A model generated the notes under the pieces. That model was not told the DNA's origin and searched no databases. It saw nothing but the letters and a program-made list of their open reading frames with translations. A stretch of 64,000 nucleotides of DNA from Escherichia phage JLBYU28. Location: the sequence record OK272472.1; one strand, written 5' to 3'. Both the position numbers and the translations under genes were made by a program. This document shows, one piece after another, positions 49,458-51,201 of this stretch; position 1 is the first letter of the stretch; each line of letters opens with the position of its first letter.

Positions 49458-50192
49458 TTATTTCTGTAATGCGTTCTTCATTTCTGGTGTTGCAATAGTG
49501 TCAATTACACCAGTTTTACAAGCATCATCAAACCAGTCTGGTAAGATACCTGCTAAGAACCCATTGATATTCGTTTTAAGGTACTCTGCAATAAGGGCAG
49601 CTTCTTCTTCAATCATCTGCACAACTTCATCTGCATAAGCTGTAATCTTTGAGATACCTTCATTAATCTTACTGACAGCTTGGTTAGCTAAATCAGAAAC
49701 AGTATCAAGACCCTTATCAATAGCATCTTGTAAGTCACTTAATACACCATTAACACTATCTAGTGTACTGTTCATCATGTCAATAGCTTTTTGACCATAT
49801 TCTGTAGCAACACCCATAATACCACTGAATGGTGTACAACCAACTTGCTCTCCTGCTGCACCCATAACATTGGCGTATCCCTTTGCTACCTGCATACGTG
49901 ATGAAAACTCATCAATAGACTTTTGACCGTAGTCTGTTAAGGTCTTAGTAGTTGCTGTAGTGCTTGTCAGGCTTGTTGTAAAGCTGTTTAGAAGGACTGT
50001 TGTAAGTCCAGCAGCAACAAGTTTCTCCTTCATTGTAGGGTCTGTTACAGAGCTAATAGAGCTTACAAGTGATGTAGAGGCAGCTACGGTTCCACCGAGA
50101 ACTGCTGCACCAGTAATAAGTGGGTTAGAAAACCCTTTACCAGTTTTTAAGAGATTAAAAATCTCCTTACCTTGTCCTGTCATCTCTTTCAT
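49458..50192 (-). CDS. Hypothetical Ser/Thr-rich protein embedded in the tRNA cluster
   Basis: Track ORF 49458-50255 overlaps a tRNA at its 5' end; start moved to internal Met (MKEMTGQGK...). Confidence 0.45.
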   Translation of the reverse strand: MKEMTGQGKEIFNLLKTGKGFSNPLITGAAVLGGTVAASTSLVSSISSVTDPTMKEKLVAAGLTTVLLNSFTTSLTSTTATTKTLTDYGQKSIDEFSSRMQVAKGYANVMGAAGEQVGCTPFSGIMGVATEYGQKAIDMMNSTLDSVNGVLSDLQDAIDKGLDTVSDLANQAVSKINEGISKITAYADEVVQMIEEEAALIAEYLKTNINGFLAGILPDWFDDACKTGVIDTIATPEMKNALQK

Positions 50193-50208
50193 TAAGCACC
50201 TTTGAAAT

Positions 50209-50285
50209 TGGTAGTCCAGTGGGATTTGAACCCTCTTCTCATGTTTTTCAGACACGCGCTTTAACCATATAAGCTACTTGGACTA
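50209..50285 (-). tRNA. tRNA-Phe (anticodon GAA)
   Basis: Loop CTGAAAA, T-loop TTCAAAT; acceptor has one mismatch. Confidence 0.6.
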
Positions 50286-50290
50286 TAAAT

Positions 50291-50366
50291 TGGGGTGACC
50301 TACGGGATTTGAACCCGTATAGACCATGTTCACAGCATGGGTCATTACCATTTATGATAAGGCCAC
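50291..50366 (-). tRNA. tRNA-His (anticodon GTG)
   Basis: Stem CCATG/CATGG with loop CTGTGAA; discriminator C; CCA encoded. Confidence 0.7.
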
Positions 50367-50397
50367 ATTTAAGGACTCTCGTAAGAACCCTTAGAAG

Positions 50398-50473
50398 TGG
50401 CAGCGGCATAAGGATTTGAACCTTAATAAGACAGCTTCAGAGACTGCTGCATTGCCAGTTATGCTATACCGCT
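50398..50473 (-). tRNA. tRNA-Gln (anticodon CTG)
   Basis: Acceptor AGCGGTA/TGCCGCT, discriminator G, loop CTCTGAA. Confidence 0.6.
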
Positions 50474-50478
50474 AAATT

Positions 50479-50550
50479 TGGTACTCCATATCGGATTCGA
50501 ACCGATACATAACACAGATTTTAAGTCTGGCCTCTCTGCCAATTGGAGTA
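50479..50550 (-). tRNA. tRNA with Leu anticodon TAA, short variable arm (atypical)
   Basis: T-arm ATCGG-TTCGAAT-CCGAT, loop CTTAAAA, discriminator A; about 72 nt. Confidence 0.5.
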
Positions 50551-50559
50551 ATGGAGCAT

Positions 50560-50634
50560 TGGCGGGGGATGTTGGAATTGAACCAACTTCTTCGATTTCA
50601 AAGACCGAGGTTTTAACCTTGTAAACTAATCCCC
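50560..50634 (-). tRNA. tRNA-Gln (anticodon TTG)
   Basis: Stem TCGGT/ATCGA with loop CTTTGAA; T-loop TTCAATT; 3' boundary uncertain. Confidence 0.55.
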
Positions 50635-50643
50635 TTTAAATCT

Positions 50644-51201
50644 TTACTTTCTTAGTGGATGAATAAAGAATGCCAACATAATTCTTTCCCTTGAAAATGC
50701 TCTTTCTTCTGGGACAACACTTTTAAGTTTCCAACCAACATAAATTCTCCAGTAAAATTGTTTACCAAAGATTTTAATTGACGGGATAAAAGCGAATAAA
50801 CCCCAAGCATTACTGTTCCACATCAGGAGATAACCTGTCTGATTATCTTCAGGGTTAGAACTTACGTTGATATTACCTTTCCACTTAGTAACATCTTTTA
50901 CATCTCTTCCTAATACATGGTAAGAGAAGTTATAAGCTTTGTTTCTCCAGAGCCATCCAACTCTCTGCATATAAACACCGAGCTTACCAATCTTTCGAAT
51001 CTTAGCCCATCGTTCAACGTGACCTTTGTCACCATCAATTGGGTTGTCATAAGTTTCCATCCACCTGAACCCGAAAGGTAAGTGTCCTTTTTTCTCACTG
51101 TAGAATGGAACTACGAAAGGTGCTAAGATAACTGCTAAGATTGCTGCAAATGGCTCTAACAAAGCTAAGAAAATCCATGAAGCATACTTCAAATATCTCA
51201 T
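50644..51201 (-). CDS. Hypothetical membrane protein embedded in the tRNA cluster
   Basis: 185 aa with N-terminal hydrophobic segment WIFLALLEPFAAILAVILAPFVV; W/Y-rich body. Confidence 0.5.
   Translation of the reverse strand: MRYLKYASWIFLALLEPFAAILAVILAPFVVPFYSEKKGHLPFGFRWMETYDNPIDGDKGHVERWAKIRKIGKLGVYMQRVGWLWRNKAYNFSYHVLGRDVKDVTKWKGNINVSSNPEDNQTGYLLMWNSNAWGLFAFIPSIKIFGKQFYWRIYVGWKLKSVVPEERAFSRERIMLAFFIHPLRK

Follow-up and report, generated by a model that had tools for sequence, protein, structure and literature searches.

In a 64,000-nucleotide (nt) stretch of Escherichia phage JLBYU28 (OK272472.1), hereafter the window, two protein-coding genes lie inside an array of transfer RNA (tRNA) genes; we call these open reading frames ORF A and ORF B. 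The reading that we favour, although with some reservation, is that they are two unrelated and already catalogued phage genes whose placement in the array comes from the way the genome is built and not from any work on tRNAs, ORF A likely being a minor virion protein and ORF B a dispensable membrane protein that acts at the envelope.

The window comes from a Felix-O1-like phage of the genus Felixounavirus: the interval 49000-54200 is 96-97% identical to Felixounavirus phages of Salmonella and Escherichia (GEC_vB_B1, Mushroom, Felix O1), and 229 records span 80% or more of it. Gene order is the same as that annotated in Felix O1, which runs portal, large terminase (TerL), a 66-amino-acid (aa) ORF, tRNA-Cys, ORF49, five tRNAs, ORF48, further tRNAs and an 'RNA-binding protein' gene; ORF A is Felix O1 ORF49 (NP_944879.1) and ORF B is Felix O1 ORF48 (NP_944875.1). 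Orthologues of both are found in several hundred Felixounavirus, Suspvirus and Mooglevirus genomes. The first-pass annotation had stated that the two proteins resemble nothing recognisable, which holds in part only: both proteins belong to curated families of Pfam, DUF7217 and DUF7338, as well as being known Felix O1 ORFs. A literature search on these family names found no papers. ORF A matches DUF7217 (PF23854) at E 8e-87 and 291 bits against a cut-off of 29, across positions 2-238 of the 238-position profile, and ORF B matches DUF7338 (PF24027) at E 9e-62 and 208 bits against a cut-off of 27, across positions 1-176 of 180; both are above the gathering threshold.

Both are real, conserved genes and not chance ORFs. 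That they are co-oriented amid tRNAs is confirmed with exact coordinates (Table 1), on the minus strand and within 1-19 nt of the flanking tRNAs; the longest of these gaps, 19 nt as read from the sequence, separates tRNA-Leu(caa) from ORF B, and the gap ahead of ORF A holds the Shine-Dalgarno-like AAAGGTG at 50197-50203. A longer GTG-initiated form of ORF A (265 aa, to 50255) can be drawn; we take the ATG as the true start because the GTG form overlaps tRNA-Phe and homologues begin MKEM. Conservation and coding signature, by which the first-pass annotation proposed to judge the genes, are both evident: homologues of each are encoded in more than 500 phage records, and pairwise ratios of nonsynonymous to synonymous substitution against relatives (Nei-Gojobori) are 0.06-0.15 for ORF A and 0.01-0.07 for ORF B, indicating that both are under strong purifying selection. 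Its description of ORF A as rich in serine and threonine also stands, these making up 19% of residues, as does that of ORF B as a membrane protein, with a 19-residue Kyte-Doolittle maximum of 2.38 at residues 9-31.

ORF A would be soluble and acidic, with a helical-bundle fold, and most likely belongs to the virus particle as a minor component that can be dispensed with. Its AlphaFold model is all-helical, with a predicted local distance difference test score (pLDDT) of 95, and fold searches returned generic helical bundles only. A membrane location is unconvincing: the Kyte-Doolittle peak reaches 1.62 and falls in a segment whose counterpart in distant homologues is not hydrophobic. Every Felix-like genus has homologues of ORF A, as do ViI-like Ackermannviridae at 26-29% identity; those of Dickeya phage LIMEstone1 and Erwinia phage Coenus also match DUF7217. 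Alignment with LIMEstone1 ORF129 is full-length (BLASTP E 5e-27, 26% identity, 244 versus 242 aa), and ORF129 was found in virions by mass spectrometry (25.03 kDa, 18% coverage, 2 peptides; PMC3296691), in a study that reports structural counterparts in phage ViI for each of its 12 unknown structural proteins. The ORF129 record reads 'confirmed structural protein' and has a putative late promoter upstream. By analogy with this homologue, ORF A would probably be carried in the JLBYU28 virion too, as a minor protein.

The surroundings of ORF A are consistent with such a role, in that ORF A opens the block of packaging and morphogenesis genes that borders the array on its 3' side. In each Felix-like phage examined (Felix O1, Mordin, Coenus and the metagenomic contig L111) the array gives way to this block of DUF7217, 66-aa ORF, large terminase and portal; ORF A looks embedded because in Felixounavirus, Mooglevirus and Suspvirus two tRNAs come after it, those of Felixounavirus being Ser and Cys. 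Coenus and L111 (33% identity) instead have the order tRNA array, DUF7217, small ORF(s), TerL, portal, and in Coenus tRNA-Ser(gct) is upstream of the ORF A homologue, whereas it is downstream in the window. At four Ackermannviridae loci the DUF7217 gene sits in the late region beside the gp3 tail-completion gene and uvsY, not beside the terminase, and no tRNA was found within 3-6 kb of it. The family thus keeps company with morphogenesis genes in both groups, heading the TerL-portal block in Felix-like phages and adjoining gp3 in ViI-like ones.

Two other suggestions for ORF A were set aside. A 'GTP-binding domain' was rejected, since the phrog_289 match takes in no more than the C-terminal half of a profile of 500 positions; in ViI-like phages that label belongs to a separate gene two genes upstream of the DUF7217 gene. 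Weak matches to tape-measure, baseplate-hub and ZorA models were treated as coiled-coil noise. T4 Inh might be a relative of ORF A.

ORF B would be an accessory protein that the phage can do without, held in the inner membrane by its N-terminal helix. Its model (pLDDT 93.8) has one strongly hydrophobic N-terminal helix, residues 9-33, followed by a folded domain; on this model the domain, which is basic, is probably periplasmic. Sixteen residues, T50, D52, R86 and N87 among them, are invariant, and fold searches with ORF B gave no significant match to a solved structure.

Many T4-like phages carry DUF7338, which is also matched by homologues from RB43, S16, JS10, M5.1, AsFcp_2 and Kodama. Of 80 viral-contig loci returned, 61 were scanned for proximity to tRNAs, near-identical Felix-like copies being skipped. 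Among the 26 loci at 56% identity or more, 24 had a co-oriented tRNA within 11-1095 nt; one of the other two had none and one was a contig-end fragment that was left out. At less than 50% identity, 34 of 35 loci had no tRNA in the available flanks (up to 10 kb, less on short contigs), the sole exception being a tRNA 2.4 kb off on the opposite strand; four more metagenomic contigs and three large phages also had no tRNA near DUF7338. The homologues of RB43, S16 and JS10 lie 0.2-1 kb downstream of a few tRNAs on the same strand, that of Avunavirus 19-1-2 is within a different array and followed by tRNA-Gln(ttg), and that of Pseudomonas Otagovirus M5.1 (33% identity) is inside an array, right after tRNA-Gln(ttg). 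The tRNA-linked habit is therefore restricted to the subclade of at least 56% identity, comprising Felix-like phages, Avunavirus and T4-like virulent enterobacterial myoviruses, together with Otagovirus M5.1. We rejected the idea that linkage in T4-like phages is a by-product of the e lysozyme gene, since e is 0.9 kb away in S16-like phages only and 7-9 kb away in others, and is absent within 10 kb of DUF7338 in the RB43, Karam and Slopek groups.

Distant members lie elsewhere. DUF7338 comes directly after tail-fibre or tail-fibre-assembly genes at loci L018, L078, L083, L097, L100, L101, L102 and L107 and in Aeromonas phage AsFcp_2; an endolysin gene follows 0-3 genes downstream in L018, L078, L081, L097 and AsFcp_2 and is convergent in L090, and S16 also has DUF7338 near lysis genes. 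ORF B itself is flanked by tRNAs and not adjacent to lysis genes, the Felix O1 lysin (gp35) being encoded elsewhere. Because the usual position of the family follows tail-fibre genes and often precedes a lysis cassette, we infer from this gene order that ORF B acts at the cell envelope, where its role may most likely be that of a lysis-associated accessory, with superinfection exclusion as the next possibility. In the T4-like phage AsFcp_2 (L013, 7968-8997), DUF7338 and an e-type lysozyme gene stand between a long-tail-fibre-like gene and asiA, which is the slot of the T4 holin gene t. On the 1161-bp metagenomic contig P0074, the N-terminal half of DUF7338 is joined to a Gp53-like tail-fibre C-terminal domain; we did not take this fusion as functional evidence, as it is a probable chimera or recombinant, and if recombinant it may reflect the usual adjacency of DUF7338 and tail-fibre genes.

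Not all Felix-like arrays contain ORF B. It is absent from the arrays of Mooglevirus Mordin and Kolesnikvirus Coenus, both of which retain ORF A, and the tRNAs that flank it in the window are 100% (tRNA-Leu(caa)) and 96% (tRNA-Gln(ttg)) identical in Mordin. At the DNA level ORF B is 95.5% identical to the allele of Suspvirus EcSzw_1, with a single amino-acid difference, and 93.5% to that of Felix O1; ORF A shows the reverse pattern, at 78% and 96%, respectively. On either side of ORF B, the tRNAs match those of both phages at 100% identity, tRNA-Leu(caa) being the same throughout Felix O1, EcSzw_1 and Mordin. Likewise the ORF B protein is identical to that of Enterobacteria phage CHB7, while the neighbouring ORF A is 81-82% identical to its EcSzw_1 and CHB7 counterparts. 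The ORF B locus is thus an inter-genus mosaic bounded by identical tRNAs. This mosaicism, along with presence and absence between near-identical flanks, suggests cassette exchange through tRNA homology, in which ORF B would move by homologous recombination within the flanking tRNA genes.

How far do knockouts bear out these assignments? In the fitness scores that we drew from the PhageMaP supplement, gene 159 of the Felixounavirus Bas63, which lies between tRNA-Phe and the last two tRNAs and would be the counterpart of ORF A, scored -0.14 to +0.71 when knocked out, and gene 153, labelled 'holin*' and lying between tRNA-Leu and tRNA-Gln as the would-be counterpart of ORF B, scored +0.75 to +1.85. 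Both counterparts were thus scored as nonessential on the two hosts concerned, S17 and MG1655; the correspondence is by identical gene order, not by sequence, and this together with the number of hosts has to be set against the favoured reading. Several other points weigh against it too. Structural proteins seldom give near-neutral knockouts, and Bas63 structural genes mostly score -2 to -4 on MG1655 and BW25113 in the same supplement; its authors do state that pooled screens can hide defects through trans-complementation. The LIMEstone1 identification consists of 2 peptides only, from a study that also picked up some non-structural proteins, and there is no trusted proteomic detection of ORF A in any Felix-like phage. 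The 'gp49' of the Felix O1 paper is a virion band of 51 kDa, which its authors consider might be the sheath (PMC3185647); we rejected this as proof that ORF49 is in the virion, since 51 kDa fits ORF63 (450 aa, annotated as tail sheath) and not the 25.6-kDa ORF49, and the whole-phage shotgun list of that paper omits 49. As for ORF B, its tight tRNA linkage recurs in several T4-like genera with differing neighbours and nearest tRNAs (Met, Gly, Arg, Phe), and is not fully explained by co-mobility, nor, for the majority of these lineages, by proximity to e.

The position of ORF A would also suit, in place of a virion protein, a factor for packaging or assembly that works with TerL and portal, for instance the missing small terminase or a protein resembling a scaffold: in Felix-like phages it is always just upstream of the 66-aa ORF, TerL and portal, Felix O1 has no recognised small terminase, and many scaffolds are likewise acidic and all-helical. 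Yet the near-neutral Bas63 counterpart contrasts with scores of -2 to -4 for TerL and portal, the Ackermannviridae gene keeps to gp3 and uvsY away from the terminase, and the LIMEstone1 homologue was detected in mature virions, all of which make such a factor unlikely. Ackermannviridae presumably also carry a T4-type small terminase of their own, which would weigh the same way. For ORF B, the competing proposal is written into many records, where it has been copied as 'holin'; the label goes back to the announcement of the Mushroom genome, where topology alone led to the naming of a class III holin (PMC4392139). The architecture does resemble that of T4 T, with one N-terminal membrane helix, holins being small phage proteins with at least one, and a domain of about 150 aa that would be periplasmic; AsFcp_2 and several contigs have DUF7338 in the T4 'tail fibre, tail-fibre assembly, t' slot adjoining an endolysin gene, and Felix O1 has no holin beside its lysin. 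Homology to T (Pfam Phage_holin_T) was however not found, a profile comparison with T giving a probability of 0.1%, and a need for DUF7338 as the sole pore-former in lysis is contradicted on several sides: Citrobacter phage Margaery has DUF7338 and a T homologue together, L018 has it along with a two-helix small holin candidate, an endolysin and Rz/Rz1 spanin genes, and the Bas63 gene 153 scores are positive where those of candidate holin gene 29 are -1.2 to -1.7 (MG1655, BW25113). Invariant polar residues and a well-folded domain are untypical of holins, for which a position in a presumably early-transcribed array would moreover be risky. The label is unsupported, and ORF B is probably not the holin; we give the proposal little chance of being correct. 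Bas63 gene 29 encodes a small protein after the tail fibres, itself labelled 'holin*', whose expected counterpart by position is Felix O1 ORF79, and is a better candidate for the Felix-like holin than DUF7338 because its knockout fitness is clearly negative.

The first-pass annotation had further suggested a role in tRNA expression, or in interference with host translation or defence, and one can picture one or both proteins acting in tRNA biology or guarding against defences that target tRNAs or translation. Both genes are embedded among the tRNAs and very likely co-transcribed with them; the DUF7338 subclade, in Felix-like phages, Avunavirus, Otagovirus and T4-like phages, is almost always within about 1.1 kb of a co-oriented tRNA across several local contexts; and a neighbouring Ro60-like gene is reported to counter a defence system in Bas63. 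The proteins themselves do not bear this out: Pfam, PHROGs, NCBIfam and PADLOC showed no RNA-binding or RNA-processing, nuclease, ligase, nucleotidyltransferase or defence domain in either, the weak ZorA matches being read as noise. Nor is linkage to tRNAs a property of either family as a whole, given the four Ackermannviridae loci, where the ORF A family is a virion protein away from tRNAs, and the 34 of 35 distant DUF7338 loci. ORF B is membrane-anchored, with a modelled domain that is probably outside the cytoplasm, and Mordin and Coenus keep full tRNA arrays without it. The nonessential Bas63 counterparts point in the same direction, and neither gene 153 nor gene 159 is mentioned by number in the main text of PhageMaP. 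A role of this kind is unsupported, and we consider it very improbable.

Co-transcription of both ORFs with the tRNAs, which had been proposed from the tight spacing, is very likely, since gaps of 1-19 nt leave no space for separate promoters. A pattern scan found no terminator between either ORF and its flanking tRNAs, and placed one past tRNA-Cys (Table 1). The nearest upstream promoter-like site has the same sequence as Felix O1 'P45' (PMC3185647); it is weak evidence, because promoter-like matches in the region do not exceed shuffled expectation. By reverse transcription-polymerase chain reaction, Felix O1 ORFs 48 and 49 were expressed and were among the genes maximal at 5 min, and the authors assumed early transcription of the tRNA array (PMC3185647); this timing is coarse, because the 5-min list also includes several head and tail genes. 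The ORF A and ORF B messenger RNAs (mRNAs) would accordingly be segments of one long precursor that also carries the tRNAs. On the model of the E. coli tufB operon, they would presumably be cut free by RNase P together with processing of the tRNA 3' ends.

Table 1. Coordinates of the two genes, their flanking tRNAs and candidate expression signals in the window
Feature	Position	Strand	Basis
ORF A: 244 aa, 25.6 kDa, isoelectric point 4.5, all-alpha; DUF7217, phrog_2114; probable minor virion protein	49458..50192	-	ORF list, Pfam, PHROGs, model, LIMEstone1 ORF129 proteomics (PMC3296691)
ORF B: 185 aa, 22 kDa, isoelectric point 10, one N-terminal membrane helix and folded alpha/beta domain; DUF7338, phrog_2143; 'holin' in some records	50644..51201	-	ORF list, Pfam, PHROGs, model
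Shine-Dalgarno-like AAAGAGG, 8 nt ahead of ORF B ATG	51210..51216	-	sequence reading
tRNA array, 22 genes, containing both ORFs	49284..54034	-	ARAGORN; Rfam agrees
tRNA-Leu(caa), directly upstream of ORF B; left flank of ORF B cassette	51221..51298	-	ARAGORN
tRNA-Gln(ttg), 8 nt past ORF B stop; right flank of cassette	50560..50635	-	ARAGORN
tRNA-Phe, 16 nt upstream of ORF A start	50209..50284	-	ARAGORN
tRNA-Ser(gct), 1-nt gap past ORF A stop	49364..49456	-	ARAGORN
tRNA-Cys, final gene of array	49284..49359	-	ARAGORN
Nearest upstream sigma-70-like promoter: TTGACA, 17 nt, TATAGT; 11/12 matches	52835..52863	-	pattern scan
Intrinsic-terminator-like hairpin GACGGTCTCTGTGCCGTC then T run; past tRNA-Cys, before 66-aa ORF and TerL	49097..49121	-	pattern scan
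Candidate second hairpin, long loop: GCCCTG...CAGGGC then six T	49187-49246		authors' own reading only

Several neighbouring elements deserve mention. The 66-aa ORF (48860-49060, minus strand; phrog_4397) directly precedes TerL in each Felix-like phage examined, the distant contig L111 among them, and may merit attention as a packaging partner because Felix O1 is without a recognised small terminase. Directly upstream of the array, a 471-aa protein (54200-55615, minus strand) carries DUF2828 and DUF7788; its PHROG label is 'RNA-binding protein', and one related record has 'vWFA protein'. Its positional match in Bas63, gp130, is described in the PhageMaP preprint as structurally resembling Ro60 and countering the 'ppl' defence system, and the same text speculates that some 'tRNAs' could be Y-RNA-like partners. 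Within the array, a 660-nt gap (52220-52879, minus strand) has only short ORFs and no called tRNA. At 52463-52541 / 52543-52732 (minus strand) this gap holds an extra Rfam tRNA-like element, which at 31.2 bits is just over the gathering score and was missed by ARAGORN, with a very weak match (16 bits) to transfer-messenger RNA (tmRNA) beside it. An ssrA-like tmRNA is stated for Felix O1 in the Mushroom announcement (PMC4392139), and ARAGORN called a permuted tmRNA in Mordin (L024, 548-1297).

For annotation, these results mean that the 'holin' and 'membrane protein' labels now widespread among Felix-like genomes are best regarded as unsupported, and that ORF A is better named a DUF7217 putative virion protein. 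The Felix O1 'gp49 structural protein' (PMC3185647, compared with ORF49 and ORF63 of NC_005282) looks like a numbering slip carried into the abstract. Mildly novel are the two sharply different genomic habits of one family, DUF7338, and the indications that accessory cassettes recombine through the tRNA genes on either side of them. With two mRNAs within 1-19 nt of tRNAs, Felix-like phages also offer a simple system for the maturation of tRNA-punctuated bacterial mRNAs. These threads can be drawn into one tentative account, possible but doubtful as a whole: DUF7338 would be ancestral at the tail-fibre/lysis junction, in the slot of T4 holin t, and may be a new lysis-control or exclusion factor that was captured by the tRNA arrays of virulent enterobacterial myoviruses; near-identical tRNAs would then act as portable homology by which Felix-like, V5-like, T4-like and Otagovirus phages swap cassettes, the mRNAs being matured by tRNA punctuation.

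The closest known system is Felix O1 itself, which has the same two genes in the same positions between the same flanking tRNAs, at the DNA identities given above; it differs from the window in an additional tRNA-Arg upstream of ORF48 and in HNH endonuclease genes within the array. LIMEstone1 ORF129 and its ViI-like counterparts share with ORF A a Pfam family, size and full-length homology. The LIMEstone1 gene, unlike ORF A, is in a late region beside gp3, far from tRNAs, and virion detection has come from there and not from Felix-like phages. DUF7338 shares with T4 holin T its single N-terminal membrane helix, large C-terminal domain and, in some phages, genomic slot; it differs in lacking sequence, profile or structural similarity, in co-occurring with T and in having a nonessential Bas63 counterpart.

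Protein genes within phage tRNA arrays have already been described, the Felix O1 HNH genes among them, and segB in the T4 tRNA region is a further accessory gene of this kind. ORF B resembles the HNH and other accessory genes of such arrays in being a variable, dispensable gene between tRNAs that is present or absent among close relatives, and differs from homing endonucleases in having no nuclease domain; its mobility is apparently passive, by way of recombination in the flanking tRNAs. Mixed tRNA-mRNA operons are likewise familiar from E. coli thrU-tyrU-glyT-thrT-tufB, from the ORFs of the T4 tRNA region and from the mitochondrial 'tRNA punctuation' model. As in tufB-type operons, coding sequence and tRNAs in the window would share one precursor from which they are freed by tRNA-processing nucleases, as the 1-19 nt gaps imply; where the window departs from them is in having two separate ORFs, each bracketed on both sides by tRNAs.

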